Assembly: GCA_044356215.1 (NCBI GenBank)
Contig: JBIKWQ010000040.1
Coordinates: forward strand, 1 to 30,824
DNA from: Bdellovibrionota bacterium
Lineage (GTDB): Bacteria > Bdellovibrionota_C > UBA2361 > OMII01
Length of the DNA: 30,824 bases
Direction of reading: 5' to 3'
The position numbers and the translations under genes are program-made. The notes beneath the pieces were generated by a model. That model saw only the letters and a program-made list of their open reading frames with translations, was not told the origin of the DNA and made no database searches. This document shows, one piece after another, positions 7,260-24,996 of this stretch. Position 1 is the first letter of the stretch, and each line of letters opens with the position of its first letter.

Positions 7260-7826
7260 TTAGCGATACCTCATGGCTAGAAAATCCTCCAGCCCGCCAA
7301 CTCCCAGCCCCACATATTGAATAACAGAGCGGCCATCCATAAAAACCGCATAAGGGACATGTTTTCCCCTTAACGCTAGGAATGCTTCATCTTGTGTATC
7401 ATTGCCCGAAAAAACGTGGATTACCGTCGTCAGATCCTGTTCCCGAATTCTCTCCTTCACCACAGGAAGATCCTCGTTTCGGTCCAAGTTAACCGCGTAA
7501 AAATCTGTATCTCCACGGCTAGCGTAAGTTCTAGCGAGGTCCTCAAAATCAGCGATCACCCCACGTGAATGCGCGCACCAGGTTGCCCAGAATAAGACAA
7601 CCTGATTTCTACCGGACGGGTTCTTTAACGCCACATCCTCTCCGCTCAACAACATAAGCCGCCCATCGGGAACGGGTTGTCCCAATAGCTCCTGAGTATC
7701 AGGAGCGATAGTCGAGCATGAAACAAAGAGCGCCAAAAGCGGCACCGCCGCTAGCTTACCAAGGATTAATTGAGCGTCGAATTTCAAAATGGCTTGATTA
7801 ATCTTGAATAGACAGCCGGTAAACAT
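7260..7826 (-). CDS. TlpA/ResA-like thioredoxin-fold protein, probable lipoprotein, CxxS active site
   Basis: VVLFWATWCAHS motif, YAVNLD, cis-Pro region HVPYAVFMD, lipobox-like LFVSC. The true start may be further downstream. Confidence 0.8.
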   Translation of the reverse strand: MFTGCLFKINQAILKFDAQLILGKLAAVPLLALFVSCSTIAPDTQELLGQPVPDGRLMLLSGEDVALKNPSGRNQVVLFWATWCAHSRGVIADFEDLARTYASRGDTDFYAVNLDRNEDLPVVKERIREQDLTTVIHVFSGNDTQDEAFLALRGKHVPYAVFMDGRSVIQYVGLGVGGLEDFLAMRYR

Positions 7827-7865
7827 AACGAGACCCTCTTAAGCCAAAAAGAGTATCGGCCCTAT

Positions 7866-10196
7866 TCAATGATCAATCAAGCCCGCTTTGTTGATGGCAC
7901 TACTGCTCGAATCCGCCGAGAGCCACGCGGTGACACCAAGTCGCCCCTGAAAAAGCTCCTTTTCATAGACCTCTCGAACCTCCGGATCCTGCTCATTATC
8001 GTACATATCCCTAATCTTCTCCTTTGACGAAGTAATTCTTACTTGTTTCAGGAATGGCAACACTTCACGCCTCACCGCTGGATCGGAATGACTCAGGAGC
8101 TTAATCAGACGATCCGGATGAGTAACACCTCCATACACCCTCAGAAGAGCTCTAACAGCGCGGGGAGATCCATGGTCTATTAGGGTGGTGACTATCGTGC
8201 CGAATGACGGCTCTTCTCTCAGGTCGCGCAATCCATCGGCGATGAAGGGGTCCGTCTCGGCTGAGTTCAGGCCGAGTCCACCCACAATCTTAGCGTATCT
8301 CCAGAGCTCTTCATCCTGGGCACTCCTTAGGTATTCCAGAATAGGTCGCGGAGGAGCGTCGAAGACGGGCTGTAATATTAGTCCCTGAACAGCTCTGCTC
8401 ATTACCGCATGATCCGATGTCGCTAGAGATACCGCGTACAGGCACCGAAGAGCCAACGGGTCGTTCCATCCGACTATCGCGTTTACATCAGAGATTGAAG
8501 CCCCTTCCTTAGCCGCCTTAAAAAGAGCTTCGTAAGGTGGTGAACTCTCAGTTCTGGCTTCAGTCATCGTTTGGATAAAAATATCCTTGGGCCATGAAAC
8601 CAATTTTCGATCATAGATTGACTTCGCTAAGTATGGAATCACAGGGGTCCGTTTCCGCGAATGGGCCTGAAGCAACCACCATAGGCGGTCACTGGAGATC
8701 ATATCCTCCCTTCCCCAGAAGTGCGCGGCTTCAGTAGATAGACGCGTCTCAGCCGCTAAAAATAGGACCTCCGTATTTAAAGATTCTAAGTACGATCGTT
8801 CAGCTAAACCTGACGATACGATGTTAGAGATAAGCTGCTCTCGATACCTTTTCTCCCACTCTCCCCCGGCCTCGATAAATCCAGCTGATAGCACTGCTCG
8901 AGATTCATCATCACCCTTAGTGTAAACTTTAAATGTTAGCTCTCCACTCTCTTCATTAGCGTTCCTGTTGGCTAGATATTTGAGCAATCCAGCTAGCTCT
9001 CCACTGAGATGGCCGATAGTCTTCGCTGATTCCCTCAAACTATCAATTGTGCTCCCACCAACAGGGACATATTTTTCCCGTGCCTCTTTTAATTGATTGA
9101 GGATGTCGACCAATTCCTTAGAAGCGTCCTCAACCGACTGACGCTCGCGTTCATCTTGAATATTGTCCACCACCTCTCGTTCTGGATTTGATTTTCCTGA
9201 ATTGAGAACCTGCTCCAATATAAATGGCATCATCAGCACCAACGCTAACGTGAACAGGATCCCTTTTACAATCTTAGACTCCGCTATCTGATCGAACTGT
9301 CGTCTAAGTCTCTCTGCGGCCGAGAGCTGCAGCTCGCGTAGTTGATCAAAGGTGAGTGGTCGTTCCTCTCCTGGACCCAGAACCGCACCTCGCTTAGCTG
9401 ATCTCTGTTGTAACAGCCACTCACCCTCACCAACCTCAATCGACTTAAGCAACTCTTTAGCGTCGCGGCAAAGGGTGTGATTCGGGTCCTTGGCGATCGT
9501 CGCGAGCACTGAAAAAACCCACGGGGGAGAATCATCCGGTATCTGCTCAATGCATTCCTCAATTTGATCAGCTTGCACTTCACTCGAGCCAAACTTCGCG
9601 CCGAATAGCTCTAACCCTAAAATCGCTAACGCGAAAACGTCCGCGGCCGCCGAGGGCTTTCCTGGGTGCTTATCACCTCCGCGGATATACCGCCTAGATT
9701 CCTGCGAAATATTCATAAGGGAGGAACTCTCAAATCCTCCGAGAAATCCAACGAACTCCACCTCCCCAGACTCAGCTAAAACAAAAGACGCGGTGGATAT
9801 ATTACCACAAGATACTGACTTGCTGTGTAGACGTGAGATGAGCGCGAGGCACCTTAAGTATCTATTTCTAAGAATGACCGGCGAAGAACGATCAGAAGCG
9901 ATGCTTTTTCCGACAGTGTCCGGAAGGGCAACAAAAGCGTACCCCTCTGAATCGACGCCAAAATCGGCGTCCTGTATTTTAATAATCTTTAAGAGTCGCT
10001 CAGAGTGCTCGTGAAATCGCCTCCGTTGCTCTTCAGATAGCCGTTCACGCGAGAGCCACACTAAGGCTTCGTCCTTTTCATCCGAGCTCTTTGAATGGTA
10101 GCTGCCACCTTGAATGACAGACCCAATATCCCAGGCGCGCGGCCACGCCTCTCGAGTTGGCCCAACAGATTTCACTATCTTCGCCGCTCGAGCCAT
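7866..10196 (-). CDS. Membrane protein with N-terminal degenerate protein-kinase-like domain, central TM helix and C-terminal HEAT-like helical repeats
   Basis: LHSKSVSCGNISTASFVL aligns with the LH...HRDLKPxN region and AADVFALAIL with subdomain IX. TM segment GILFTLALVLMMPFIL; HEAT-like LIKLLSHSDPAVRREVL and EQDPEVRE. Confidence 0.65.
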   Translation of the reverse strand: MARAAKIVKSVGPTREAWPRAWDIGSVIQGGSYHSKSSDEKDEALVWLSRERLSEEQRRRFHEHSERLLKIIKIQDADFGVDSEGYAFVALPDTVGKSIASDRSSPVILRNRYLRCLALISRLHSKSVSCGNISTASFVLAESGEVEFVGFLGGFESSSLMNISQESRRYIRGGDKHPGKPSAAADVFALAILGLELFGAKFGSSEVQADQIEECIEQIPDDSPPWVFSVLATIAKDPNHTLCRDAKELLKSIEVGEGEWLLQQRSAKRGAVLGPGEERPLTFDQLRELQLSAAERLRRQFDQIAESKIVKGILFTLALVLMMPFILEQVLNSGKSNPEREVVDNIQDERERQSVEDASKELVDILNQLKEAREKYVPVGGSTIDSLRESAKTIGHLSGELAGLLKYLANRNANEESGELTFKVYTKGDDESRAVLSAGFIEAGGEWEKRYREQLISNIVSSGLAERSYLESLNTEVLFLAAETRLSTEAAHFWGREDMISSDRLWWLLQAHSRKRTPVIPYLAKSIYDRKLVSWPKDIFIQTMTEARTESSPPYEALFKAAKEGASISDVNAIVGWNDPLALRCLYAVSLATSDHAVMSRAVQGLILQPVFDAPPRPILEYLRSAQDEELWRYAKIVGGLGLNSAETDPFIADGLRDLREEPSFGTIVTTLIDHGSPRAVRALLRVYGGVTHPDRLIKLLSHSDPAVRREVLPFLKQVRITSSKEKIRDMYDNEQDPEVREVYEKELFQGRLGVTAWLSADSSSSAINKAGLIDH

Positions 10197-10248
10197 TTTT
10201 GGTACGTTACCGCCCTCCTAATCCGAAATCCCTTACAACGACTACGAT

Positions 10249-12354
10249 CTACGCCCTCGCGTTCCATACCCCTATCTGAGTCACAGGAAAGGCCGGATCA
10301 ATCTCCTCCAGCGTGGTCACGAACACTCGAAGCCCACTCATCCGAACGAAGGATATGACCTTCTCCTTTATCTCCCTACTGCACAGCAGGGCGACCGAGA
10401 GACTCCCCGACTGCAAGGTCGGTTTAACCACTTCATATAAACCCTGCAGCAGGGTGTCATATAAATCGGGGGCCATAGCCAAAGATGTTGTCCAGCGATC
10501 CGCTGAAGCCTCTTCAAAATTTCGCTCTACATCAGGTGATAGCGTCAGGACCGGCAATGCAACTCCAGAGGAGACGAATCTTCTCACTACTTGTCTTCTT
10601 CTCGAGGCCCTCACAAAATGAACCACTTCCGCCAAGTCTACCGGTGATTCAGAGCCTAGGGTGACCCCTGCGGAGGCACAATACGCGGCGACACACTCCA
10701 TAATTGAGCGAAAATCCCGAATACTCACCCCCTGCCTGACTAACTCTTGCAGAATCTCCGCCAATTTAGGGACGGAAACAAACTCCTTCCCGAATCCATC
10801 CGCGACAAGTCCAGGAAACTTCTTCTCAATCTGACGCAGTAATGAGTGAGTATAAGTGACCGACACTACATCCTCGGGATGCTCTTTAATTGATTGGGCG
10901 ATTCTGATGGCGATAAATCCCAGAAATTCATAACGCGGGATTCGCGCCGCGCTTAAAGACGCTAGAGTTACACCTGTTCTCGGGGTCCAAAAGAGTCGAT
11001 GACCAGAAGCCGGATGCTCCTCCTCTCTTAACACCTTTAATCCAAACACCCCAGCTTGGGAGCTCGACATCTCAACTAAAATCGCGTCTTCAGGAAGACT
11101 ACCAGATAGCATCTCAATCCCCATCGATCTGACCGAGTATGAATTGGGAGCTAATAGGTCGTCGGCTACAACTCTTAGGCCGGGGAGAGCTACACCTACA
11201 TCCTCAAAGAAGTCATCTCGAAAGGCGCGCCACTCGCTCGAGTATTCAGCCGCGCGGGAGCGATACACTTTGTACAAACTATTGCGATCAAGAGCTAGTA
11301 CTAAAGTACTATCCGGCCCTTCTCCATCCTGCCCCACGCCCATGGCATCGCCGCTCTCCACCGCGCTTTTGGACTCCATACTTAGAAGCGCGTTGGCGTC
11401 TCGACGGCTCCATAACCCAGCTAGAACCAGCCCAACCGCCGCGAGTAAAAACGGTATCATCGGCACTCCTGGCATTAGTGACATGACCGCCATAACCCCC
11501 GCAGTTACCATTAAAGTAACAGGGTGGGCGAATAGTTGAGCGCGTAGGTCCGCGCTTAAACTAGAACGCTCCGAGCTTGATACACGAGTCACTATAATAC
11601 CGGCGCATATCGCCGTGAGCAGACTAGGGATCTGAGTTACGAGACCATCTCCAACAGTTAGAACCGTATACGTCTGGAGGGCTTCCGTAATTCCCATTCC
11701 TGACGCCAATCCCATGTATATTCCGCCAAAAATGTTGGTGAGTATTATCAATATTCCAGCTATGGCATCTCCTCGCACAAACTTCATCGCTCCATCCATC
11801 GAGCCGTAGAGCTGCGATTCGCGCCTTAGTTCATCTCTCTTGCGACTAGCCTCATCCGCTGATATCACCCCTGTGCGTGCATCGGAGTCGATCATTAGCT
11901 GCCTTCCGGGCAACGCGTCCAAAGCGAATCTCGCCGCGACCTCAGAGACACGGGCGGCGCCGTTTGAGATAACGATAAAGTTCACTACTGTCACTATCGC
12001 GAATATGATAAGCCCAACTACTAACTCCCCGCGGATCAGGAATGTGCCGAAGGCCTCAATAACCCGACCGGCCTCTCCCTGACTAAGTATCAACCGCGAA
12101 GACGCCACGTTTAGGCCGAGCCTAAAGAGAGTGCTCAACAGAAGTATCGTCGGAAAGGTAAACAAAGCTGTGGAGCTTCCCACGTATAAGCCAACCAGAA
12201 GCAGCAGAACAGAAAACGCCAAATTCATCACTAACAACCCGTCTAGCACAGGTGTCGGAAGAGGAATAATTAGCATCGCCGCGATGGCTATGACTAGAAA
12301 CATCAGAACAAAGTCAGCGGCCCGTATTCTAAATGTCATCTCTGCTTTCCCCAA
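10249..12354 (-). CDS. FHIPEP-family type III export gate protein (SctV/FlhA)
   Basis: FPTILLLSTLFRLGLNVASSRLIL, RVSEVAARFALDALPGRQ, YGSMDGAMKFVRGDAIAG, TVGDGLVTQIP, and cytoplasmic LQELVRQGVSIRDFRSI. Alternative ATG at 12339. Confidence 0.93.
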   Translation of the reverse strand: MGKAEMTFRIRAADFVLMFLVIAIAAMLIIPLPTPVLDGLLVMNLAFSVLLLLVGLYVGSSTALFTFPTILLLSTLFRLGLNVASSRLILSQGEAGRVIEAFGTFLIRGELVVGLIIFAIVTVVNFIVISNGAARVSEVAARFALDALPGRQLMIDSDARTGVISADEASRKRDELRRESQLYGSMDGAMKFVRGDAIAGILIILTNIFGGIYMGLASGMGITEALQTYTVLTVGDGLVTQIPSLLTAICAGIIVTRVSSSERSSLSADLRAQLFAHPVTLMVTAGVMAVMSLMPGVPMIPFLLAAVGLVLAGLWSRRDANALLSMESKSAVESGDAMGVGQDGEGPDSTLVLALDRNSLYKVYRSRAAEYSSEWRAFRDDFFEDVGVALPGLRVVADDLLAPNSYSVRSMGIEMLSGSLPEDAILVEMSSSQAGVFGLKVLREEEHPASGHRLFWTPRTGVTLASLSAARIPRYEFLGFIAIRIAQSIKEHPEDVVSVTYTHSLLRQIEKKFPGLVADGFGKEFVSVPKLAEILQELVRQGVSIRDFRSIMECVAAYCASAGVTLGSESPVDLAEVVHFVRASRRRQVVRRFVSSGVALPVLTLSPDVERNFEEASADRWTTSLAMAPDLYDTLLQGLYEVVKPTLQSGSLSVALLCSREIKEKVISFVRMSGLRVFVTTLEEIDPAFPVTQIGVWNARA

Positions 12355-12369
12355 ATCTAACTAAGTCAA

Positions 12370-13290
12370 TTAATCGATCCCTGTCTTCACTTGGCCCGCT
12401 ATACCTAAACCCAACAGCAGCATGTAAGCTAAAAAGATCATCGCAACCGGTCCCGACGCTTTTACTTCCATTTTTCTTATATCAGACTCTATCTTGCTCT
12501 CGCGTTGGCTAGTGACGGCGTCAGCCAGCTCTTGGAGCTGCTTCGATACCTCACCTCCAAATTTGGCTACCTGCGATAAAGCCAGTAAGGCGTGCTTAAA
12601 TTCCGGCTGTCCGGATGTTCGCCCTATTTCGACTAGGGCTTGCTCTAGATTTACGCCAGACTTCACATACGAAAGCGCGTGCTTCAATAGACGGGTTGCC
12701 GCGTTGTGGCAGTTACGATCGTCGGCCATCTCAATTAACTGCGATATACAGGGGCCTATGTCTAGTGAGCTACTCACCCCGATCGATATCTGCTCAATCA
12801 GAAGCGGCAGGTAATATGATAGCTCTTCGTGCTGCTTTTTCACCCAGCCACGAAGAATCATCATTGGCAAATACAGTCCAGCGAGTACGCCGACCGCTAC
12901 GATCATCAATGCTGTATTTACATCACCAGAGATCAGTCCAAGTATTCCACCACCGAATCCAAACACTAGCGGCGCGAGCTTCCTACGACGATGAAAATCC
13001 TCACGCTCCGCCGTCGACACTCGTCCAGCCATTATTAGGAGTTCTTCTACGGTTGGCTCTTTGGACGCCTTCTTCTTTTTCTTGCTACCAGTATCTTGTT
13101 CATCATCGCTCTGATAGTCCTCGTCCTCGTCTGCACCCTCTGACTCATCCAGATAGCGCCCTATTTCTCTTAGGTTTCTCGCTCTTTTTATGCCACTTCG
13201 CGAAGAGCTCCGAAACTTAAACCATAGAAGCAGTATTACTCCCAAGAAGATGGCGGTAACAATCATCATCTGATTAGTACTAGGTTCCAT
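12370..13290 (-). CDS. tadC: Tad pilus inner-membrane platform protein TadC (T2SS F family)
   Basis: Three hydrophobic regions and T2SSF-type LEQALVEIG..LSQVAKFGGEVSKQLQELA; follows tadB. Confidence 0.85.
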   Translation of the reverse strand: MEPSTNQMMIVTAIFLGVILLLWFKFRSSSRSGIKRARNLREIGRYLDESEGADEDEDYQSDDEQDTGSKKKKKASKEPTVEELLIMAGRVSTAEREDFHRRRKLAPLVFGFGGGILGLISGDVNTALMIVAVGVLAGLYLPMMILRGWVKKQHEELSYYLPLLIEQISIGVSSSLDIGPCISQLIEMADDRNCHNAATRLLKHALSYVKSGVNLEQALVEIGRTSGQPEFKHALLALSQVAKFGGEVSKQLQELADAVTSQRESKIESDIRKMEVKASGPVAMIFLAYMLLLGLGIAGQVKTGID

Positions 13291-13294
13291 ACTC

Positions 13295-14299
13295 CTACAC
13301 CTTTATATTTGTTACCTTCTTCATAGCTAAAACCGCGACAAAAACAAGGACTATTGAGCACTGAGCGTAACCCGCTAAATCGGGATGCGTCCACGCCCCT
13401 ACCACCATTTTAGGAGCTATGAAATACATGTAGGTTTGAACAGCCATAACTATTCCAATGATTACCCAGATGGACCCGCTCTGCTGGGCGACAGCCGCGC
13501 TCGCTGCGCGCTTGAAAGTCTGTCTCTTCCTGACCTGTTTCGCTAATCTGTCCAGCGTATCCGAAAGAGTTCCTCCAAGACGTCTACTTAGAATGAGGGC
13601 TTGAACAAATAGCTCGATCTCCGGCTGATAAACGCTCTCTCCGAACGCGCCGATCGAGCTATCCTCGGGGACTCCCATCCTGACTCTCTCAAGCATCAAC
13701 TCTATCTCGTGCCTTACAAGGGAATCCTCATCTAAACCCTCTGACGCTGCCTGCAGTGACTGAACGGTATTTAATCCCGTTTTCAACATTCCTACAGTGG
13801 CCAGTAGGAACTGAGCGAAATCAGCATCAAACTTAGCTGAGCGCTTGCGCATTCGCCTATTAATCCATCCGTTTACAAGCAGCGGCCCCATCAGAATCGC
13901 GAAGATCTGGAGAACAAGTCGGAGATATACATATGCTATAGCGAACAATATTAAACTCACGAGAATCTGCAGCAAGCTCACGACAAATGGTGGCATCCAA
14001 GCTAAATTGGCGTATTTAAGTCTCGCTTGCAGATTTAATTCTTGGCTTCCTCCGCCATCTTCTTCCTCTGGATCCGCTTCCTCTAGTTCTTCATCACTGT
14101 CGGTATCAGACTGTCCTGACTCCGGCTCATCGTCGTCTCCGCTAACCCGCACACGATATTGCTCCAATCCACCTCTTAGCCCAGACCTATGACTCCGAAC
14201 TCCATCTTTAGAGCTCTTGAGCATGCGCCAAACAATCACCGCCGCTATCAGAACGATCGCTACTCCGACAGAGACAAGTACGAGTGGTTGAGTTCTCAT
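13295..14299 (-). CDS. tadB: Tad pilus inner-membrane platform protein TadB
   Basis: FDADFAQFL..LKTGLN, ILSRRLGGTLSDTLDRLAKQVRKR; follows tadA. ATG at 14299 preferred over the GTG at 14323, which overlaps tadA. Confidence 0.85.
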   Translation of the reverse strand: MRTQPLVLVSVGVAIVLIAAVIVWRMLKSSKDGVRSHRSGLRGGLEQYRVRVSGDDDEPESGQSDTDSDEELEEADPEEEDGGGSQELNLQARLKYANLAWMPPFVVSLLQILVSLILFAIAYVYLRLVLQIFAILMGPLLVNGWINRRMRKRSAKFDADFAQFLLATVGMLKTGLNTVQSLQAASEGLDEDSLVRHEIELMLERVRMGVPEDSSIGAFGESVYQPEIELFVQALILSRRLGGTLSDTLDRLAKQVRKRQTFKRAASAAVAQQSGSIWVIIGIVMAVQTYMYFIAPKMVVGAWTHPDLAGYAQCSIVLVFVAVLAMKKVTNIKV

Positions 14300-14309
14300 A
14301 ACTGGGTAA

Positions 14310-15797
14310 TTATTTCTTCCCACCCTCTAGCTCAGGAAAAGTGATCTCCGATGGAGACTCCTCTAGCTTAACGCCATCTTTTTTAAGCTGCTCAGAGAAA
14401 TTACTATCAAATGAATCGACGCGCCAAATCGGCTTTACACCCTGCTTGATCTGCGTAAACATCGGGCGAACCTGAATCTGACCCTCTACGTAGTGTCCAA
14501 CTTCAATGACTTCCGCTACTCTAGGCCTTCCTGTACCTTTCTCACGAATTAACCAAACAACGGAATCAACGGCGAGAGCAATCTGCTGACGGATAATCTC
14601 CACTGATACTGATTTCTGAGCTCGACCAAGAAGGCTTTCAAGACGAACTAGAGTCTCTCGCGCGTTTCTGGCGTGCACAGTTGACATACCAACGTGCCCC
14701 GTCTGAGCGCTCTCAAGAAACGCCTCCGCCGAGAATGGACTACGCATCTCTCCCAGAAGCACTCTAGTTGGGGTCATTCGAAGCGTAGTTTTTATATGCT
14801 CCTGAAGGGTAACCTCTCCAACTCCCTCAGAGTTAGGAGGTCTTGATACCAAAGATCTGAAATACGGGTGCTGAAAATTAAGTTCCGGAGTGTCTTCTAC
14901 CGCGACGATCGACTCATCAGGCCCAAATTGCGTCGCCAAACATTTAATCAATGTTGTCTTTCCGGTTCCTGTCTCTCCGGCCACCATCATTGTAGCTAGT
15001 CCACTACGAATAAGACTCGCTAAGTAGTCCACAACTAAGGGGGGCGCCACCTGAAATTTTACCAGATTTTCCAGCGCCACTTCTGATATTCGCGGCACAC
15101 GGATACAGAGAAGCGGACCCCGTTGACCACAAACACTCTCGTGCACAGCGCAGAGCCTTATTCCATTTGAGAAGGACGCGTCGACCGTATGCTGCTGCGT
15201 AGTAAGAGACTTGCCCAACCGGAGTAAAAGACGATCTATGAAAGTCGTGTAGGCTTGGTGCGATGGCCACGACAGACCTGTAGTCTCACTAACTTTTCCT
15301 CTTTGGAGTACGACTGTCTTGTAGTCGTACACGTGGATATCAGTAACTTCTCTATTTTCAATCAGCGGCTGTAATACTCCCCATCCAATCAGATCCTTCT
15401 GAAGAGTTATAATCAGATTGGCTCGCTCAATATCATCAAGGCTAGTTGACTTCTTCTTTAGAACCTTATCTACAGCCTGACTTATCACCGCCTCGGCTTT
15501 ACCGGGGATTACCAGCTGTTGCTGCATCAAGCTGTCGCTTCCGATCTCCCTCCGAGCTTCCTGCATTGCCGCCACAGCAGCGGCAGATAGTGCCACGGTC
15601 TTGGCCACCTGCCTCTGCTGCTTGGGCTGAGGATTGGGCTTAGGCGCTTCTGCCTCTGTCGATGACAACGCTTGAGATGGCCGTGGATTTGATGTTGACC
15701 CAGGCGCGCCTGAAGCTCCCGCGCGCTGCGCGCGTGTCGAGAACATCCCCTTTAAAGCTACCGTATCGCTACGCTCTCTTTCCTTCATAGACCCCAC
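14310..15797 (-). CDS. cpaF: Tad pilus motor ATPase TadA/CpaF
   Basis: GWGVLQPLI..VTDI, Walker A AGETGTGKTT, Asp box VEDTPEL, Walker B RVLLGEMR, His box TGHVGMSTVHA. Alternative ATG at 15788. Confidence 0.93.
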   Translation of the reverse strand: MGSMKERERSDTVALKGMFSTRAQRAGASGAPGSTSNPRPSQALSSTEAEAPKPNPQPKQQRQVAKTVALSAAAVAAMQEARREIGSDSLMQQQLVIPGKAEAVISQAVDKVLKKKSTSLDDIERANLIITLQKDLIGWGVLQPLIENREVTDIHVYDYKTVVLQRGKVSETTGLSWPSHQAYTTFIDRLLLRLGKSLTTQQHTVDASFSNGIRLCAVHESVCGQRGPLLCIRVPRISEVALENLVKFQVAPPLVVDYLASLIRSGLATMMVAGETGTGKTTLIKCLATQFGPDESIVAVEDTPELNFQHPYFRSLVSRPPNSEGVGEVTLQEHIKTTLRMTPTRVLLGEMRSPFSAEAFLESAQTGHVGMSTVHARNARETLVRLESLLGRAQKSVSVEIIRQQIALAVDSVVWLIREKGTGRPRVAEVIEVGHYVEGQIQVRPMFTQIKQGVKPIWRVDSFDSNFSEQLKKDGVKLEESPSEITFPELEGGKK

Positions 15798-15963
15798 CCA
15801 TAAAACCTACACATATCAGGTCTAGATATTACGATTCATTTTAGCCGCTTAGCGGAGCAGCTCCTTTTAGGCTTGAAGGGGAGATCGGCTTTTTAGTCAA
15901 AAAAGATGAGTAAAATGAGGCCAAATAAGGTCTGCAATAATCAGAACGGCGTATCTACACGGA

Positions 15964-16833
15964 CTACCCCGGTATCAGCTGGCTCCCTATCACCCTGTAC
16001 TTTCTGCCATCGATGATAACCCAGCCGTGATCTGGTTCTCCTCCTTTTGACCCCTCATTAGGAGGAACTATTATACCTTCTACTGAAACCTGTGTCCGAT
16101 CCTGAAGCTCTCCCGCATCCTCATCACCACGGAGCAAGAGACGTAGCTCGCCTTTTCCAGAAGCCAACTTTAGCCGCTTCTGATCCTCGGTTGAGACCTC
16201 CAAAGTTACTGTCGACTCGCCATTCATTATGGTCTTAGACTCTCCGCCGAACTCCGAAGAGACACTAGTGCCGCTAGATAGCACCTTTAGATTCTGGGCT
16301 ATTATAGTGGCCTGCGTTGTGTTTCCACTTTTAGCCACAAGAACCACATCGACTCTGACACCTGCCCTAGCCCATCCTTCATTGGTTGTTTGTCGATCCA
16401 GACGGATTGTAATAGCTCGGTAACCTAATCTGATCTGCGGAACAACGCTATTAACCGGGGCTCTGAAAGTTAAATGCTCTGACAGTAAGGGCTGGCCCGC
16501 GGCTATAAAGGTCTTGGCGTATACACCTGTCAATTGATCAAATCCACCAACAACCCCAGCGGATATGAAATCAGCCGCCGGCTTACTTTCTTTGCGGAAT
16601 AATTCGGGCTTTAACTCACTACCCTCATCTATATTTTTTATGGATATCAGAACGTCAACCGACGAGGGAGCGACAGGAGATAGTGGCTGCGGCGCAATCG
16701 GCTGACTTGTGGGGGATTCTTTTGGGGCCGATACCAAAAAGAAAACCGCGGCAACTCCCACGGCCAGAGCCGCTACTGTCAAAACAATCGGCTTTGATAC
16801 AGCGGCTTTCCCCGTGCCCCTGTTTTTTTTCAC
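15964..16833 (-). CDS. cpaB: Flp pilus assembly protein CpaB/RcpC
   Basis: N-terminal TM anchor, SAF domain, GYRAITI..GWARAGVRVDVV, IAQNLKVL, VTLEVS..LKLA..GELRLLLR. Confidence 0.9.
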   Translation of the reverse strand: MKKNRGTGKAAVSKPIVLTVAALAVGVAAVFFLVSAPKESPTSQPIAPQPLSPVAPSSVDVLISIKNIDEGSELKPELFRKESKPAADFISAGVVGGFDQLTGVYAKTFIAAGQPLLSEHLTFRAPVNSVVPQIRLGYRAITIRLDRQTTNEGWARAGVRVDVVLVAKSGNTTQATIIAQNLKVLSSGTSVSSEFGGESKTIMNGESTVTLEVSTEDQKRLKLASGKGELRLLLRGDEDAGELQDRTQVSVEGIIVPPNEGSKGGEPDHGWVIIDGRKYRVIGSQLIPG

Positions 16834-16916
16834 CTTACATCCCCTTCAAGCTGCCTACTATGCGAGCTATTATTGCCGACTCGCTTTGCTTTATGCCCAC
16901 ACTTCAGGCCTAAAGC

Positions 16917-16942
16917 CAGGCGGGGCTAAAAAGCCCCGCCTG
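16917..16942 (-). terminator. Strong stem-loop downstream of flp (partial terminator or mRNA stabiliser)
   Basis: CAGGCGGGGCT-AAAA-AGCCCCGCCTG, a perfect 11-bp GC-rich stem about 30 nt after the flp stop, with only a weak U-tract on the minus strand. Confidence 0.7.
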
Positions 16943-16973
16943 ATGAAACTAACATTAAGACAAAAACCTAATG

Positions 16974-17165
16974 TTAATTAGTACTAATCTGGCTAGCAGC
17001 CTTACTCATCTCTGTACTCACGTTACTTCCAAGTACACGCACTCCAGCGATTACCACTACAGCTAGAAGCGCTACAAGGATCGCGTACTCCACCATCGAA
17101 GCTCCGCGCTCGTTCTTGCTATCACGCTTCTCATTATTGATCTGGCTCTCATTTACACTATTCAT
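16974..17165 (-). CDS. flp: Flp family (Tad) major pilin
   Basis: Class III signal NERG/ASMVEY followed by hydrophobic AILVALLAVVVIAGV; ATG at 17165 after a GGAG RBS. Confidence 0.93.
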   Translation of the reverse strand: MNSVNESQINNEKRDSKNERGASMVEYAILVALLAVVVIAGVRVLGSNVSTEMSKAASQISTN

Positions 17166-17545
17166 AATTTCTCCATTCAGTAACAATTAGTCCGCGCCTT
17201 TTTATCAGCACGAAATTTCTTATCTCTGTAGAACAAAGATGCGAATTACCTCGATTTGGACGCACCTAAAATCCACAGATTTTTCTAAGATGAGGCAAAC
17301 AGCGTTGGACTGCGACTCACCTTGGGGTCAGAATGTCCTATCGGTAGGAGTTTGGAAATATATTAATATTTATACAGTGTTTTATTGATAATTTTTTCTG
17401 CGTTCACCTTTTTGCGGTCTGCGCCTAGTGGAAACACAGAACTGAATGCGGATTACTGTTAATGTAACTACTCAGCCAATTACGCCGCGATGGCGTTAGG
17501 CCCTATCAAGGCGCGCTTTTGCGGAGCAAGGCGGGCTGGAGATAA

Positions 17546-18793
17546 TCACCGTCTAAGAATTCGTCGCAACAAGCCGCGCCTCTCCTGCTTATCGCTTTCC
17601 TCTCCTTCTACCACCCCCGCTCCCGAACTATCCACGGGCAACAACCCTAGCGAAGCAGCTATCTCCTTAAAAACCCTATTGAGCTCTTCGTTACCGGCGC
17701 TAAAGAGGGTATTTCCACTTCCTGGCCAGGAAGAGACCTCTGGGTCAAAAGGAACCGCCGGCAAACTCCAACACATATCACTCAGCTCGTGAGTTGAATC
17801 AAGGTCACCCGCTATCTGTTTAAGGTCTATCTTCCGATCAGATAACGCCCTTATCAGAAATCTAATCCGATCCGTTCCACCTATCAAAGGCTTTACCGAG
17901 GACAACAATAAGTCCATCGCAGTTAATCCCAACTCAGAGTCATCACTGGCCACCAAAACTAGATCGGCATTTCGTAGAATTCCACCGACCGCTGGTCCCA
18001 TCCTACCAGCAGTGTCGACTATAACAACATCAAACATAACCTTGGCCAGCTCGATGATCCGCTGCGATATCTCCATACCATCCGCATGACATACGAGATC
18101 CATCGACTCGGCGAATCTATCAGGCGCCGTTAGTACCGATACATCACCCGCGATCGGAATCAGCGCGTCTCTGAATGTCTCGCGAGATATATCCCTACTC
18201 CCATTGACCCAACCGCTTACTACTTTAGCTTCCGGCCCAGCGGCCGCGAGACATCGACTCAGATCTTTAGTTTCAACGTCGAGATCCCAGAGTAGCGTGC
18301 GGCGCTCGTTGACACTACACACTTCGCCTATAGCGGCCGCCGCCGAAGTAGCGCCGACTCCTCCCTTTCCATGAATGATCACCACCACTCGTCCATCGAC
18401 AGATCGGCCCTCTTTGCGAAAATCGGTGCTGATAGCCACCAACTCCTGCAACAGATCCAATGAGCTAGATCCATCAGGAAAAACTTTTCGTACTCCTACT
18501 GAGTGCGCGGATCGAAACGCTCCGCCTCCATACTCCTCGTCGCTTACAAACATGACGATCTGTAGCCATGAGGCCTGCGTTCTCGCTTGCCTCGCTATCG
18601 ATACCGCCTCACCGGAGAGCCCGGAACCAATGATTAGAACATCCGCCTCTCCTACCCGATCCAACACCTCTCTCTCAGAAACGAGACGCACTTTGAGATC
18701 AAGCATCTCCTTGTCGCTTTTCGAGAAAGACTCCACCTTCCTGGCGCAGAAAGCCTGTGTCTCAGTTGTCCGATCTACTATCAGAACCTTCAT
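17546..18793 (-). CDS. cpaE: CpaE/TadZ-like protein (atypical receiver domain plus MinD/ParA-like ATPase)
   Basis: MKVLIVD..ADVLIIG receiver-like N-terminus, deviant Walker A GKGGVGATS, LLWDLD, FDVVIVDT. Confidence 0.85.
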   Translation of the reverse strand: MKVLIVDRTTETQAFCARKVESFSKSDKEMLDLKVRLVSEREVLDRVGEADVLIIGSGLSGEAVSIARQARTQASWLQIVMFVSDEEYGGGAFRSAHSVGVRKVFPDGSSSLDLLQELVAISTDFRKEGRSVDGRVVVIIHGKGGVGATSAAAAIGEVCSVNERRTLLWDLDVETKDLSRCLAAAGPEAKVVSGWVNGSRDISRETFRDALIPIAGDVSVLTAPDRFAESMDLVCHADGMEISQRIIELAKVMFDVVIVDTAGRMGPAVGGILRNADLVLVASDDSELGLTAMDLLLSSVKPLIGGTDRIRFLIRALSDRKIDLKQIAGDLDSTHELSDMCWSLPAVPFDPEVSSWPGSGNTLFSAGNEELNRVFKEIAASLGLLPVDSSGAGVVEGEESDKQERRGLLRRILRR

Positions 18794-20256
18794 GACCCAA
18801 AACTCAAAAGCGTAAGTTTATCTAAAAAAGATGGCGCGAAAATTTTTAAAAACAGGTAGCCGACCCCAATACCACTTAGGGCTGCGAATACCATAATAGT
18901 CAAATCCAAGGTGCGGCCTCCCAGCGCATACCTATTAGCTCGATCTGTCCTCGCTCCTTTGGCCGAATTCGCCTTTAATTGGCCGCCATTCCTCGATGCC
19001 TTAAAGGTTCCTTGCCCCTCTAATTTTCCACGAGCGGCTGGTGAAGCTACCTTGCCCGAAACAGCCGCGTTTCCGTCACGACCAAATTTTCTATTTGAAT
19101 AGTTAAAAGCAGTTGCCGGGTCCAAGTAGTCGGTTGGCTGTCGCGCGCGAGGATCATCGACATCCGCAACGCTATTAGTTTCGATCTGCTCTTTCGCGGA
19201 ATCTTGCTGGGGGCTATCCCATCGATCGTAGGTCTCTCTTACAGCTCCTCCGTAATCGATCGAACCACCAGTAGTTAAGAGTCGCGTCTCGGCCGCCTTA
19301 CCCTGAACATCAGCCGGACCGCTGAGCGTAGGACCCACATATCTTTTACTGGTGAATACTGCCTCAGGCGGAATCAATATTCCTGAATCGATCTCCCCAG
19401 CCACTCCTAGACTAATCGCTACTCTCTGCAAGTCGTAAAACATCTCTCCCGCCGATTGATATCTCTCATCTGGATCTCTCTTGAGAGCCTTTAACACGAT
19501 TCGATCGAGCTCAGGTGGACATTCAATTCTATAAGTGCTTGGGGCCTCAGGATCGTTTTGTAAACGTTTACTGATTGAGGCGTACGGACTATCTCCCTTA
19601 AGCGGCGCTTCCCCGGCAATCAGCTCAAACGCCAAAATACCCATGGCGTATATATCTGACCTCCAGTCCACCTGAGACTTCAACATATACTCAGGGGAAA
19701 CGTATTCAAGAGTGCCTACAACGCCGCCATGCTCAGTAAGTTTAGGACCATCGGTCTTTCTGGCTATGCCGAAGTCAGCTATCTTGACCATCCCCTCGTT
19801 AGTTAGAAGGATGTTTTCGGGCTTAAGATCCCTGTGCACGATGCCCGCATCGTGTATCGCCTGGACTCCCGCCGTCATTTGACACAGAAAACGCAAACAC
19901 TCGGAGATACTAGTTAGCTCCGAGCGACTCATACGATCAGCTAGGTCACCGCCGCCAACAAACTCCATCGTGTACGCGGTAATATCTCCATCTTTGATGA
20001 ATTCATAAGCTCTAACTACACTAGGATGAGATATCCCATACGAAGCGAGGATCTCATTTTTGAAGCGCGCCGCCGCTATAGAATCACTAGCTACGTCATC
20101 AAAAAGAACTTTAGCCGCGACTAGCTGACCCTGGAGATCCCTATGCCGGCACGCGTAGACCATCCCCATACTTCCAGCGCCGAGGCATTTAACCACCTCA
20201 TATTTTCCGCCGATCACCGTTCCCGGCTGTAAGGTCACTGAGTGCTGGTCAGACAT
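18790..20256 (-). CDS. Hanks-type Ser/Thr protein kinase with C-terminal membrane anchor
   Basis: LGAGSMGMVY, VAAK, HRDLKPEN, KIADFG, GTLEYVSPE and SDIYAMG are all intact; C-terminal TM; ATGA overlap with cpaE. Confidence 0.96.
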   Translation of the reverse strand: MSDQHSVTLQPGTVIGGKYEVVKCLGAGSMGMVYACRHRDLQGQLVAAKVLFDDVASDSIAAARFKNEILASYGISHPSVVRAYEFIKDGDITAYTMEFVGGGDLADRMSRSELTSISECLRFLCQMTAGVQAIHDAGIVHRDLKPENILLTNEGMVKIADFGIARKTDGPKLTEHGGVVGTLEYVSPEYMLKSQVDWRSDIYAMGILAFELIAGEAPLKGDSPYASISKRLQNDPEAPSTYRIECPPELDRIVLKALKRDPDERYQSAGEMFYDLQRVAISLGVAGEIDSGILIPPEAVFTSKRYVGPTLSGPADVQGKAAETRLLTTGGSIDYGGAVRETYDRWDSPQQDSAKEQIETNSVADVDDPRARQPTDYLDPATAFNYSNRKFGRDGNAAVSGKVASPAARGKLEGQGTFKASRNGGQLKANSAKGARTDRANRYALGGRTLDLTIMVFAALSGIGVGYLFLKIFAPSFLDKLTLLSFGS

Positions 20257-20291
20257 TTTATACTTTTACCTACTCCGCTTAGATTAAAACC

Positions 20292-21185
20292 TTATCTCCT
20301 TAAGGCCGCGGCTCCTAACAAAGCCACATGATACTCACACTCACCAAATATCACCACATCGCCGTGCCGAAGCGCGCTTTTATCTCCCATCAGGCTATCC
20401 TCTCTCTGGTCTTCCGCGCGCTTAATTCGAGTCCCGTGCTCCGATAGTTGGTCCAAAATCAGGACATCACCATCACCAGATATCCGCATGATCGCGTGCA
20501 TCGGTGACACCGACTCATGATGTATAACGAGACAGCTATCACTTAAACTTCTCTCACTTGAAACTAACAAGCGCCCCTCTCTCAGCTCCACGTAGGAGCC
20601 CAGAGAATCAGAAGTGAAGGAAACTAGGAACCCGACTAACTTGGTCGGCTTTTTCCATTCAACGCGCGCCTCGTCCCCACGCTCCTTCCTGGTGCCTCTT
20701 GTGATTGGATCAGACACGGCCACATCCAAAGCCCGCGCTGGCCGCTCAACCTCCTCATCCGCCCGAGCCAACGGAGCAGCGAATATATCGTCTTTTTTAC
20801 CGCTTACCGCGGGCTCAAATATCGAGGAATGGACCGCGATGTTTTCAACTTTTACATCACCATCTAGCCGGGAAAGCGAATCCCCTCCGAGACTAGCCTC
20901 TATCTCCAAGCCGGCAAGTGGCTCATCATTCAAGATCGATTCAGCGAGAAATTCGCTAGGGCCGAGGTCCATCTCCTTCTCTTGACCAGCGACGTCTTTA
21001 ACGCCTTCTTGATCAAAATCATCCTCGAATAAATCATCGACATCGAGCGCGCTAAATCCGTCATCTTTTTCCCCAACCTGAAAGTCAGCTACATCCGCCG
21101 GCTGAATCATCATGGTCTTGTTGCGTGCTCGCAGAGATGATCTTGGAAATTTTGATTGTACTTTCTCGTTCGTGTCCTCTGACAT
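20292..21185 (-). CDS. FHA domain protein with acidic disordered N-terminus
   Basis: C-terminal LVGFLV..SVSPMHA..ILDQLSEHGTRI..LRHGDVVIFG matches the FHA pattern; sits between phosphatase and kinase. Confidence 0.85.
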   Translation of the reverse strand: MSEDTNEKVQSKFPRSSLRARNKTMMIQPADVADFQVGEKDDGFSALDVDDLFEDDFDQEGVKDVAGQEKEMDLGPSEFLAESILNDEPLAGLEIEASLGGDSLSRLDGDVKVENIAVHSSIFEPAVSGKKDDIFAAPLARADEEVERPARALDVAVSDPITRGTRKERGDEARVEWKKPTKLVGFLVSFTSDSLGSYVELREGRLLVSSERSLSDSCLVIHHESVSPMHAIMRISGDGDVLILDQLSEHGTRIKRAEDQREDSLMGDKSALRHGDVVIFGECEYHVALLGAAALRR

Positions 21186-21186
21186 A

Positions 21187-22215
21187 TTATCCCCATCTCA
21201 TATTAAAAAAAATATAACTACAGACCGCGCATATCGCGGATATAGCGGCGACTAAAAAAACTCTCCAGATGTGCCCCTTAAGAGTTATAGCCGAGTATCG
21301 TGCGTGAACCTGCTGGCCCTCTGTAATGACGCCAAGCAAAGGATCCTCGTTTAACTCACCTTGCCACCTTGGTCCCTTATCTCTCACATCTAATTCAGAT
21401 ACGGGTTCTAAACTCCCTCGCAGCGGAATGACCAGAGCTGTGATGTTATCAAAGCCGCCTCTATCTCGAGCTATATCGATCAATTTAGTGGTGGCGTCTT
21501 GAGCGCTAAAATTAGTCACCAAGGCGGCCATCTCCTCCTCGGAAACCAATCCATACAGGCCGTCAGAGCAGAGCAGAATCCACTCAGTCGGCTCTAGCTC
21601 TGATTCGCGTTGTCTCAATTTAAATTTACGCGCATCCACTTCGAACCCTAGCTCAGAACCTAAACAGCGGGTCAGTATATGAGATTGAGGATGAATCATC
21701 GCGTCGCTAGGAGAGATCTTTCCAGCGTCAACCAACTGTTGCACAAGGGTGTGGTCGTTGGTCATCTGTGTGATAGAGCCAACTTTAATATGATAAGCGC
21801 GGGAATCTCCCACAGCACCTAGAGCGACCTCAGTTTCACTCACCAGAACACCAACGGCCGTTGTTCCCATACCGCTCAGACTTGCGTCGCTAGTCTTTAA
21901 GAGAAGAGTTCGCTGAGCCTCCTCTATAGCCTTAACTACAACCCTCAGGGGCTCGGTTAGAGAGGTTTCATGTAGGTACTTGCTGATAGTCTCCGCTGAA
22001 ATCAACGCCGCCGTTTCTCCCGCCGGCTGCCCTCCCATTCCATCAAATACAAAGTAGCCCGCAAGCGATCCTGCGTTAGCGATTAAGAAGCAATCCTCGT
22101 TAGATGTGCGCTCGCATCCTTGGTCGGTTTGGCCGTAAGCTCGTAGCCGATCATCAACGATAGATCGCTTGACGATCTTGCCAGATCCCATCCTTGGCTC
22201 GTTATATGATCCCAT
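21187..22215 (-). CDS. PP2C/PPM-family Ser/Thr phosphatase with C-terminal TM helix
   Basis: RTSNED, VFDGMGG, MGTT, VGDSRAY, TNDHT, LCSDGL, GGFDNIT; C-terminal hydrophobic segment. Confidence 0.96.
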   Translation of the reverse strand: MGSYNEPRMGSGKIVKRSIVDDRLRAYGQTDQGCERTSNEDCFLIANAGSLAGYFVFDGMGGQPAGETAALISAETISKYLHETSLTEPLRVVVKAIEEAQRTLLLKTSDASLSGMGTTAVGVLVSETEVALGAVGDSRAYHIKVGSITQMTNDHTLVQQLVDAGKISPSDAMIHPQSHILTRCLGSELGFEVDARKFKLRQRESELEPTEWILLCSDGLYGLVSEEEMAALVTNFSAQDATTKLIDIARDRGGFDNITALVIPLRGSLEPVSELDVRDKGPRWQGELNEDPLLGVITEGQQVHARYSAITLKGHIWRVFLVAAISAICAVCSYIFFNMRWG

Positions 22216-23355: not shown

Positions 23356-24177
23356 TCAGTTGACGTCAAAAGACTCAATCCTAACCACCGGCTGGTACGC
23401 TACGGTATCTGAGGCAGGAAGTAGCTTCTCCAGGGTCAATCGAAAAGGTTTAACACCCTGCGGCGCGAGGTCCATGCCGCGCACTTGAATCCGTTTCTCA
23501 TTCTCCAACGGAGGATTCGGCAAGCCTAATTTACTAGCGGGAGTGAAGCCAGCTACCAAAACTACATCATTAATAACAGCCTTCCCTGAATTAAAAAACT
23601 CGCCCTTGATCGAGAAAGAAACCAAACACTCCTCCGGGGACGAGCAGCTACCATCTGGCACTCGGTGAACCTCAAGATTACGGAGAGCTAAAAAATCAGA
23701 CTCCGCTTTATTGGATTTAAGAGAGGCGCGCGTGGAACCTATGTATGGCTCAGCGTCTCTACCCCACAAAACTTCTAACTGATAGTTCGATAAGCCATCA
23801 GCAGGCAGCGCTAATGAAAACCGTGTCGGGATTGATGGGTTAAGATCCTCTCCGCTCTTTATAAGATCCACCACCTTGTGCGAGACCACTCTCTCTTCTC
23901 CCTGGGAGTCGACGCCTTTAAGTCTCACGATAACATCTTTCGCTGCGCGGCGCTCCTTTGACACCAACTGCCCCTGAATGTTTAGCGTCTTACCGTCATT
24001 GGATTCTTTGAGTACATCTAACCTAAAAGGGGTTACCGAAGGATCTCCTCCTAGCGCTGAGCCAACGACACTTATATCCCCCCCTCCAGTCGCCGAGCGA
24101 TTAAACCAGCTACATCCCGACAACCCAACAACGGAGATAATCGCGAATAAAGTAACAGCTCTTACTGACACCATCAT
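23356..24177 (-). CDS. Lipoprotein with two tandem beta-sandwich (FxLYD/DUF3426-like) domains
   Basis: Lipobox LSGC; two copies of the pattern IxG...DV.V/L....L.P....F.L.L. Confidence 0.6.
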   Translation of the reverse strand: MMVSVRAVTLFAIISVVGLSGCSWFNRSATGGGDISVVGSALGGDPSVTPFRLDVLKESNDGKTLNIQGQLVSKERRAAKDVIVRLKGVDSQGEERVVSHKVVDLIKSGEDLNPSIPTRFSLALPADGLSNYQLEVLWGRDAEPYIGSTRASLKSNKAESDFLALRNLEVHRVPDGSCSSPEECLVSFSIKGEFFNSGKAVINDVVLVAGFTPASKLGLPNPPLENEKRIQVRGMDLAPQGVKPFRLTLEKLLPASDTVAYQPVVRIESFDVN

Positions 24178-24180
24178 AAA

Positions 24181-24645
24181 CTATCCCTCAATTGTTTGTT
24201 CCCTGCTGGTCATGAGCCATCCAGTGCCTGGCGAGAATTCCCAATTCTGCTCCTCACGTTTAGAACTCACAACCAGGTGCGAGACTTTAAATGAATCAAC
24301 CTTAACTACAACTCTAGCCTTACGAGCCCCATCAATCCACTCGATCTCATCGATCTGTGATTTAACGATACGCTCCTGTTCATTATTATCCTGGAGCTGT
24401 TTTGATATGTCAGCTTGCGCCTCAGGAGCGACGAGCGCCATAGCCTGAGATTTATTCCCGAAGATTCTCGCCTCCGAGAACTTTTTCAACTGTGGCGGGA
24501 GAAGCTCCATACGGTCTCCCTCGGTTAACCCAGTCTCTTTGAATGCCTGAACAAATGGAACAAGTACGCAACCTGTAGCGCTAAATGCGACCACTAGCGC
24601 GAAGCACAACACAGAGAAACGCCCGATAAACCAAAACATTACCAC
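24181..24645 (-). CDS. Hypothetical lipoprotein
   Basis: Lipobox ATGC; helix-then-beta pattern; 3 and 9 nt gaps to its neighbours. Confidence 0.65.
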   Translation of the reverse strand: MVMFWFIGRFSVLCFALVVAFSATGCVLVPFVQAFKETGLTEGDRMELLPPQLKKFSEARIFGNKSQAMALVAPEAQADISKQLQDNNEQERIVKSQIDEIEWIDGARKARVVVKVDSFKVSHLVVSSKREEQNWEFSPGTGWLMTSREQTIEG

Positions 24646-24654
24646 CCCACAAAT

Positions 24655-24996
24655 CTACTTACTATCAGAATCCGATGCCGCTGCTGGCTCTTCAGCACCT
24701 TCGCTTCCAACGCCACCTATTAAATTCGAGAGAAATCTCTTGATCTTGGCTATATCGTAATCCGGCAACACGCTACCGGGCTGACGATTAGGCTTTTGGT
24801 GCTCCTGATCGTACTTAGCCTCTATTTTAAAAAGCTCATCGCCCCTTAGCTGTTGGATTAACTGCTTAGCCTGCTCAGTCTGCGCATCTGATGGGGATTT
24901 AAGACCCCTCAAGAGATCTCTAGCTCCGAGCATCACCATGGCGCTAGAGAATGCCACCACTACTGTAAATAATCCGAGCCTGTTTATAGCTGACAT
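24655..24996 (-). CDS. Small membrane-anchored hypothetical protein
   Basis: N-terminal hydrophobic segment; co-oriented with fliD and the two lipoprotein genes. Confidence 0.6.
   Translation of the reverse strand: MSAINRLGLFTVVVAFSSAMVMLGARDLLRGLKSPSDAQTEQAKQLIQQLRGDELFKIEAKYDQEHQKPNRQPGSVLPDYDIAKIKRFLSNLIGGVGSEGAEEPAAASDSDSK

Follow-up and report, generated by a model that had tools for sequence, protein, structure and literature searches.

Gene content of the Tad–type III locus

The subject of this study is a 30,824-nt stretch of DNA (hereafter the window; contig JBIKWQ010000040.1 of assembly GCA_044356215.1) from a member of the Bdellovibrionota whose genome is 3.24 Mb long and 96.5% complete. 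Between positions 7260 and 22215, twelve open reading frames (ORFs) on the minus strand combine the genes of a tight adherence (Tad) pilus with a type III export gate and a Ser/Thr phospho-signalling module. Gene families were assigned with Pfam and NCBIfam profiles, supplemented by motif inspection. All twelve ORFs were recovered, and the profiles upheld their families, in the order proposed by an earlier note made from the sequence: PP2C, FHA, kinase, cpaE, flp, cpaB, tadA, tadB, tadC, gate, pseudokinase-HEAT and TlpA. Comparison with relatives shows that this is an ancient, phylum-wide gene run, which joins a Tad motor, for which no secretin was found, to an apparently needle-less type III exporter under Ser/Thr control. 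Its features, listed from the PP2C gene onwards, are as follows.

21187..22215, minus strand, PP2C-type Ser/Thr phosphatase with a predicted C-terminal membrane anchor (NF033484, the Stp1 model, 202 bits; hydrophobic helix at residues 319–337)
20292..21185, minus strand, soluble FHA-domain protein with a long acidic N-terminal region (PF00498)
18790..20256, minus strand, Hanks-type Ser/Thr kinase with a predicted C-terminal membrane anchor (PF00069, 171 bits; HRDLKPEN and DFG intact; helix at 452–470)
17546..18793, minus strand, CpaE/TadZ-like ParA/MinD ATPase (AAA_31; TIGR03815 weak)
16974..17186, minus strand, Flp major pilin, likely starting at the ATG at 17165 (63 aa; PF04964 above cut-off)
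16919..16940, minus strand, 9-bp GC-rich hairpin after flp (from the sequence; function putative)
15964..16833, minus strand, CpaB/RcpC (TIGR03177, 127 bits, above cut-off)
14310..15797, minus strand, TadA/CpaF motor ATPase of a lineage-specific clade, without an FHA fusion (Walker A GETGTGKT; profiles and tree)
13295..14323, minus strand, TadB-like platform protein (PF00482, T2SSF)
12370..13290, minus strand, TadC-like platform protein (PF00482, T2SSF)
10249..12354, minus strand, full-length non-flagellar SctV-type export gate, likely starting at the ATG at 12339 (PF00771, FHIPEP, 581 bits)
7866..10196, minus strand, single-pass membrane pseudokinase with a C-terminal HEAT-like solenoid (sequence motifs and predicted structure)
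7260..7826, minus strand, TlpA-like thioredoxin with a CxxS motif, the order-specific last gene (Pfam, NCBIfam and motif)

The kinase and cpaE genes overlap by 4 nt (18790–18793), as had been noted. The 15-nt gap read between tadC and the gate holds if the gate starts at the TTG at 12354; the ATG at 12339, which has a purine-rich stretch 8 nt before it, is an equally likely start and gives a gap of 30 nt. The run has the same G+C content as the flanking DNA and adjoins tig-clpP-clpX-lon. Since gaps of 359–380, 140 and 166 nt lie around flp and cpaB and the GC hairpin follows flp, the twelve genes need not form one transcript. The gap upstream of flp is AT-rich and flp may have its own promoter, and the hairpin is possibly an attenuator or stabiliser; a promoter scan was uninformative, with 9 sites where 14.9 were expected. 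In a single lake-water metatranscriptome a fraction of 0.05 of the sequence words was present, and RNA-library contigs were identical to the window over the flp region (16863–17314, 452 nt) and the tadA–tadB junction (14223–14373). Among the matches listed (8 of 13), none spans tadC–gate or gate–pseudokinase, and DNA carry-over is possible; the matches show no more than the presence of the sequence.

Conservation of the run in the phylum

The phylum sample comprised 96 genomes, all in one class, with 73 in the window's order and 23 in other orders. Synteny was read at one set of loci from 40 genomes of the order (24 of the same genus and 16 of other families) and from 20 of the 23 other-order genomes. 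The gate follows tadC at all 40 loci of the order and at 19 of 20 in the other orders, where the single miss is a contig end. The conservation of tadC-sctV-pseudokinase that the earlier note had proposed to check thus proved extensive, and an adjacency kept in 59 of 60 loci is not due to chance. The median tadC–gate gap over the 60 loci is 31.5 nt. A pseudokinase follows the gate at 37 of 40 and 18 of 20 loci, respectively, and the whole run from PP2C to pseudokinase is present at 25 of 40 and 13 of 20, with contig ends accounting for most of the misses. True breaks were seen at L023, which lacks a pseudokinase after the gate, and at L024 and L065, in which the kinase module lies elsewhere.

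The two groups differ in what follows the pseudokinase: a TlpA gene at 28 of 40 loci in the order against 0 of 20 outside it, and a double-FHA gene at 1 of 40 against 17 of 20. The TlpA gene is an order-specific passenger; its CxxS motif, called in the earlier note, recurs in 28 of 29 TlpA-like proteins. As a test beyond the phylum, 80 of more than 600 stretches matching FHIPEP in all genomes were sampled. Three of these loci are of this operon type, and Tad genes lie beside FHIPEP in none of the other 77. A description of a Tad operon with sctV was not found in the literature searched, a scope outside which most subscription papers fall.

The flp–cpaB position is variable, with a duplicated cpaB in G037 (L019:10763-12693), four flp genes in G045 (L063:12230-13054) and an insertion in G046 (L057:12179-14952).

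The type III half beyond the window

When other-order genomes were read downstream, the run continued in 11 of 11 through double-FHA, FHA, SctJ, a 75-aa gene, an SctO-like gene and SctQ, and in 4 of the 11 it extended on through SctR, S, T and U, a 90-aa gene and a TPR gene. The core genes of these relatives match FliP, Bac_export_1/2/3, YscJ and FliMN_C. A continuous run into the type III half was also found in one of five genomes of the window's order. Since the same run in deeper relatives carries the rest of a needle-less export core, the genetic hard-wiring suspected by the earlier note is present and larger than the window; kinship with the Kil system of Myxococcus, to which the earlier note compared it, is not borne out (see below).

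Within the order the run breaks after the pseudokinase, and at 39 of 40 loci the gate stays with tadC, away from its sctJQRSTU partners. In the window's genome the double-FHA gene lies at the end of contig C78 and the rest of the core opens C111, while six further genomes of the order keep the block from double-FHA onwards intact at a second site. The sctRSTU-TPR block is retained in all eight order genomes examined and in family f27, for which a supposed loss of SctRSTU was discarded.

No needle (SctF) or translocon was matched among the small core genes, proteins of this kind being fast to diverge, and three small core families compared with solved structures gave only coiled-coil or chance matches. 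The best match of the TPR protein is the SctY chaperone, below cut-off. The gene of about 75 aa (74 aa) was dropped as a candidate SctO, the next gene, which precedes sctQ, being FliJ/YscO-like.

A second non-flagellar set, here called B, comprises a sigma factor, SctJ, a gate and a TPR protein on contig C70 (L006:16411-20000, L007:1-2320), with its SctRSTU on C99 (L179:9922-13560). This set is conserved in the phylum (L214-L233), with a FliA-like sigma factor, SctJ, an SctQ-like protein, a gate of 620–716 aa and TPR together and SctRSTU elsewhere. Its SctU is split into membrane and cytoplasmic genes, and two genes of about 95 aa look needle- or rod-like by eye only, having no family match.

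The gate is a basal non-flagellar SctV

Three FHIPEP genes are present in the window's genome: the Tad-linked gate (A), a flagellar flhA and the 638-aa gate of set B; at least three FHIPEP matches occur in 40 of 41 close genomes. The flagellar flhA lies in a separate operon, motAB-fliLMN-fliPQR-flhB-flhA-fleN-fliA, with fliEFGHIJ elsewhere. Gate A scored 556 bits with the SctV model and 520 with the FlhA model, both below the NCBIfam cut-offs, and its best solved relative is YscV (7alw, 2e-111), ahead of FlhA (7e-93).

In a FastTree phylogeny of 102 gates, a single branch separates the Tad-linked gates from FlhA, from B and from the other SctV proteins; they are placed beside B, a position that may reflect long-branch attraction. 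A mixture-model tree was built from the membrane domain of 41 of the 102 rows, with long branches omitted and FlhA as root. In it the A gates form a clade (support 97), group with the non-flagellar proteins (99) and lie outside the SctV clade that bears secretins (98); together with gates of Myxococcota they make up a basal grade whose branching is unresolved. The split of FlhA from the rest received 99–100 in the SH-aLRT (Shimodaira–Hasegawa-like approximate likelihood-ratio test). An approximately unbiased (AU) test on 24 rows rejected a clade of A with the FlhA of the same genome (p-AU 0.021), and neither A as the earliest branch (p-AU 0.256) nor A with Myxococcota (p-AU 0.497) was rejected. 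The gate is hence not the sole flhA of the genome, a test set by the earlier note, and membership of the FlhA clade or of the flagellar operon was discarded, given the flhB-flhA operon elsewhere and the AU result. We conclude that the gate is a basal non-flagellar SctV and not flhA.

Charged positions, in FlhA numbering, were read off the alignment with the structural relative. All 39 gates of the order that were compared retain R78, R87, R135, E138, D187, D196 and D236, which have functional roles in FlhA, whereas 9 differ at K191. Divergence of the gate tracks that of TadA with rho 0.64, compared with 0.28 for the third gate, in a sample of kin that are not independent. Family f27 was at one point thought to have lost the gate; it has one (L062, L065, L066 and L069), which is degenerate (FHIPEP 28–58 bits), with the membrane charges lost and the loop residues R135, E138, R142 and D146 kept.

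The Tad half and its relation to Kil

The Tad core complement is present (Flp, TadA, TadB, TadC, RcpC and TadZ), and in Flp the prepilin cleavage site and pilin motif are conserved. The window's TadA shows about 30% identity with CpaF proteins of plasmids and 58–83% with its homologues inside the phylum. In a quick tree, whose outgroup was not clean, it constitutes a separate clade with a support of 99, beside the TadA of the phylum's second Tad. KilF-like ATPases fused to FHA, identified in two Archangium genomes by their secretin and FHA neighbours, group instead with FHA-TadA proteins found at separate loci in three other-order genomes. None of 251 Myxococcota genomes, with six candidates scored in each and in a sampling without Bdellovibrio and Oligoflexia genomes, matched the window's TadA at E<=1e-70. 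Kinship with Kil is not supported: the window's TadA lacks an FHA match and branches away from KilF, for which reasons it was rejected as a Kil orthologue, and the KilF-like ATPases of relatives lie at other loci. These loci (L271, L272 and L277) also hold cpaB, tadB, tadC and flp, with no secretin match in the stretches examined.

No secretin dedicated to either half was found. PF13629, the N-domain of the RcpA/CpaC secretin CpaC, exceeded its cut-off in none of the 96 genomes, the control being positive in Caulobacter, and a secretin model gave just two secretins per genome in five of five genomes. In the window's genome these are of GspD and PilQ type only, by domain and context. A KilC-like query of that genome found nothing beyond GspD and PilQ, and SctC was found neither among its secretins nor in the five genomes scored with the secretin model. 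One A24 peptidase is present per genome in five of five genomes; in Bdellovibrio, the accessible part of a preprint has Flp processed by PilD (bioRxiv 10.64898/2026.07.08.737194). TadE-like genes have undergone expansion in some relatives, with 1, 7, 34, 12 and 2 matches in five genomes, and the TadE/TadG-like genes of the window's genome, on contigs C70 and C79, are not attributable to the window's Tad set. Some of the 34 matches, those of G047, lie within open frames of more than 1000 aa. The genes on C70 form a TadE-TadE-TadG-like triplet (L007:6385-10168), whose third member has 858 aa and which resembles the Myxococcus Tip clusters.

A second Tad set (cpaE, flp, cpaB, tadA, tadB, tadC, TadG-like and TadE-like) lies on contigs C11 and C79 (L011:343-2024, L010:12720-17865), likewise without a secretin. 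A TadA of this second kind occurs in each of the 23 other-order genomes.

Energy supply of the exporter

A quick tree divides the FliI/SctN ATPases of the phylum into three clades, one flagellar and two others, X and Y. Both non-flagellar sctL-sctN pairs are orphans outside the core cluster. Clade X is present in 20 of the 23 other-order genomes and in 0 of the 73 of the window's order. The SctO-like stalk follows a related pattern: it has 143–172 aa in 11 of 11 X-bearing genomes, is absent in G060 (no X) and in three order genomes, and has 98–127 aa in the other five. When similarity to genome G047 was compared among genomes, which as kin are not independent, X tracked gate A (rho 0.87; 0.70 without f27) and also gate B (0.79; 0.59 without f27), and Y tracked gate B (0.83; 0.53 without f27) and not A (0.44; −0.30). 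In G036, some 9 kb separate the clade Y gene from set B. The distribution of X and of the stalk, together with the similarity tracking, is suggestive of an X ATPase that served gate A and was lost in the window's order, a pattern that rests on about two events.

Both in the window's genome (C9, L178:7378-10702) and in G033 (L200), the orphan sctL-sctN pair of clade Y is convergent with an additional gene resembling flgE.

The Ser/Thr module and the pseudokinase

The phosphatase, the kinase and the downstream double-FHA protein have a C-terminal hydrophobic helix in common. In the FHA protein of the window (20292..21185), the FHA motifs are non-canonical and conserved among relatives. The pseudokinase-HEAT protein has 776 aa and a single hydrophobic helix at 309–327, giving a bitopic topology as in EssB/YukC. 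The call as a pseudokinase stands: the position of the catalytic beta3 Lys is W in 36 of 42 proteins and that of the DFG Asp is G in 40 of 42, and a structural model of a kinase domain plus helical solenoid (predicted local distance difference test, pLDDT, 82.9) matches kinase folds. Its best bacterial structural match is 3uqc, the kinase-homology domain of Rv3910 (Z 17.0, root-mean-square deviation 3.4, 220 aligned). The 350-residue solenoid was modelled with a pLDDT of 92.3; the structure comparison gave generic matches (best Z 7.6) and no specific fold match. A profile of the HEAT domain drew 264 clusters at 1e-30, and the 10 inspected carried no functional name beyond kinase or hypothetical. 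An alignment search with the pseudokinase gave 9 matches dominated by kinases, and an atlas look-up returned generic kinase/HEAT clusters.

A cytoplasmic dead kinase, one membrane helix and an outer domain are shared with EssB/YukC of the type VIIb secretion system and with Rv3910. EssB/YukC, a secretion pseudokinase, is described in the accessible text of PMC9600267 as binding FHA domains, and here an FHA gene follows the pseudokinase at 17 of 20 other-order loci; the likeness is an analogy, homology not being shown. The outer domain differs in being a HEAT-like solenoid, and EssB is absent among the 50 structure matches listed. Genes for FHA proteins, kinases or PP2C are likewise found no more than 10 kb away at six Myxococcota-type SctV loci (L095, L100, L102, L107, L125 and L147), so that the phospho-module may be an old feature of this grade of type III secretion system (T3SS).

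Relation to known systems

In the prey-killing Myxococcus, according to the accessible parts of the papers cited here, the Kil pilus recruits a needle-less T3SS (T3SS*), without which Tip is not toxic (PMC12075869), and KilC is essential (PMC8460266). Kil and T3SS* are encoded at separate loci and their mixed complex is a hypothesis (PMC12075869, PMC8460266, PMC10433427, PMC12428579); further papers give the same separate-loci picture (PMC11509652, PMC10196010, PMC13200544). A 2025 review has the pairing appear restricted to Cystobacterineae (PMC12428579).

The present run shares Flp, TadA/B/C, CpaB, FHA proteins and, as candidates encoded elsewhere in the genome, TadE/TadG-type tips with Myxococcus Kil plus T3SS* (MXAN_2434-2464), and with T3SS* an export apparatus for which no secretin or needle was found; Myxococcota SctV and gate A belong to the same basal grade. 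The differences are that Kil and T3SS* form separate clusters whereas here there is one gene run; that TadA is of another clade without an FHA fusion, CpaE is present and no KilC-type secretin was found; that sctL-sctN lies outside the cluster and was probably lost in the order, and SctU is a membrane part; and that kinase, PP2C and pseudokinase are built in. The basal 'Myxo' non-flagellar T3SS, described in the accessible part of Abby and Rocha 2012 (PMC3459982) from Cystobacterineae only, has in common SctJ, SctQ, SctRSTUV, FHA/TPR, an apparent lack of secretin, needle and translocon, and conserved, apparently vertical inheritance; the system described here is in another phylum, forms its own clade and lies inside a Tad operon. 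From canonical Tad/Cpa systems (Caulobacter, Bdellovibrio; accessible part of bioRxiv 10.64898/2026.07.08.737194), which share Flp, TadZ/CpaE, RcpC/CpaB, TadA, TadB and TadC, it differs in having no detected RcpA/CpaC secretin and in carrying sctV. The run belongs to none of Kil, canonical Tad, FlhA or the injectisome, and it would work in the manner of the Myxococcus Kil/T3SS* pair.

Coupling of pilus and exporter, and its alternatives

Judging from gene order and conservation, the Tad pilus and the type III exporter are probably coupled in function. We lean, by a small degree, towards a more specific version, in which a needle-less type III exporter coupled to the Flp pilus would deliver proteins on cell contact. 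By comparison with Myxococcus, the best reading is a coupled, phospho-regulated machine that would be convergent with Kil/T3SS*. A contact or envelope cue would shift the balance between kinase and PP2C. Phospho-threonine on the pseudokinase or gate would then recruit FHA proteins, which might stand in for SctD and nucleate SctJ/SctQ around SctV-SctRSTU. The proton-driven gate would bring substrates to the periplasm, and TadA/B/C, with CpaE and the CpaB conduit, would polymerise Flp. The pilus, tipped by TadE/TadG complexes encoded elsewhere, would carry or push the substrates outward, probably via a borrowed PilQ or GspD pore. In the window's order, where the system's own SctN was probably lost, its energy might come from proton motive force, from a shared SctN or from TadA. 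Unlikely, in our judgement, is a full physical hybrid independent of Myxococcus, with the Tad motor and platform seated on the SctV ring via pseudokinase-HEAT, Flp replacing the needle, TadA replacing the lost SctN/SctO in the window's order and neither half having its own secretin.

Several observations count against coupling. The two halves are split in most of the window's order. No secretin was found for the pilus or for the exporter, whereas Myxococcus depends on KilC, and the passage across the outer membrane lacks an explanation. In the window's genome SctJ, Q, R and S rest on weak matches, and SctT and SctU on position with no family match; SctU of relatives is a membrane part without the cytoplasmic domain. 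The gates of G055, G059 and G060 are also divergent, and the degenerate f27 gate beside a conserved TadA means that the pilus can outlive a working gate. Partners could be crossed, given that a further Tad set and a further non-flagellar T3SS are encoded in the genome. A predatory role for this uncultured lineage is conjectural.

The best-surviving alternative, which we regard as doubtful, is that the two machines are co-regulated yet mechanically separate, a pilus for adhesion or surface sensing and a periplasmic exporter used at the same life stage under a shared kinase switch. This would suit the detachment of the type III core from the Tad half in most of the order, its further splitting at sctQ|sctR in others, and the gaps and hairpin around flp, which allow separate units; two axial machines, moreover, presumably cannot share one axis. 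Mere co-regulation does not predict, however, that broken runs leave the gate with tadC and not with sctJQRSTU (39 of 40 loci).

Less probable still is a gate that no longer exports and now serves the Tad machine as a ring with a structural or signalling role, while the type III core decays. The absence of SctN X throughout the order, the stalk cut or lost in all eight order genomes examined, the strong divergence of SctRSTU in the window's genome, the f27 gates that keep loop residues without membrane charges, and G060, with a gate and no sctRSTU in the run, are all in keeping with it. Against these stand the membrane charges kept in every gate of the order (39 of 39) and the persistent sctRSTU-TPR block, also in f27.

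A coupled machine for contacts other than predation, for instance binding to a protist or host cell or DNA uptake by the Tad pilus, seems improbable. The ATPase is not KilF-like, and Tad pili have roles in adhesion and in the uptake of DNA according to the accessible text of PMC12428579; yet no translocon or SctC was found, separate PilQ/type IVa pilus and type II secretion loci exist in the genome, and no DNA-handling gene is in the run.

It is barely credible that a stray flagellar flhA, or the gate of the second non-flagellar T3SS, has come to lie beside tadC by chance: the two NCBIfam scores are close and below cut-off and the AU test leaves room for a branch below all other SctV (p-AU 0.256), but separate gates exist for the flagellum and for the second T3SS, and the adjacency of 59 of 60 loci includes G042, G046 and G056, in which a search for a flagellar flhA found none.

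The way in which a T3SS lacking needle and secretin cooperates with a Tad pilus is still debated for Myxococcus. A phylum-wide run whose Tad genes are of another lineage suggests that the pilus–T3SS pairing arose a second time, and names candidate linkers: pseudokinase-HEAT, the FHA proteins and the gate. The natural losses of ATPase, stalk, gate charges and SctRSTU form a test set for the parts that a type III gate needs, and gate A adds a deep branch to the history leading from flagellum to injectisome.

Neighbouring genes in the window

Outside the run, fliD lies within 23356–27950, apart from the other flagellar genes. It stands between an ORF of 433 aa and three small ORFs (113, 154 and 273 aa) with no notable family match in Pfam or NCBIfam.

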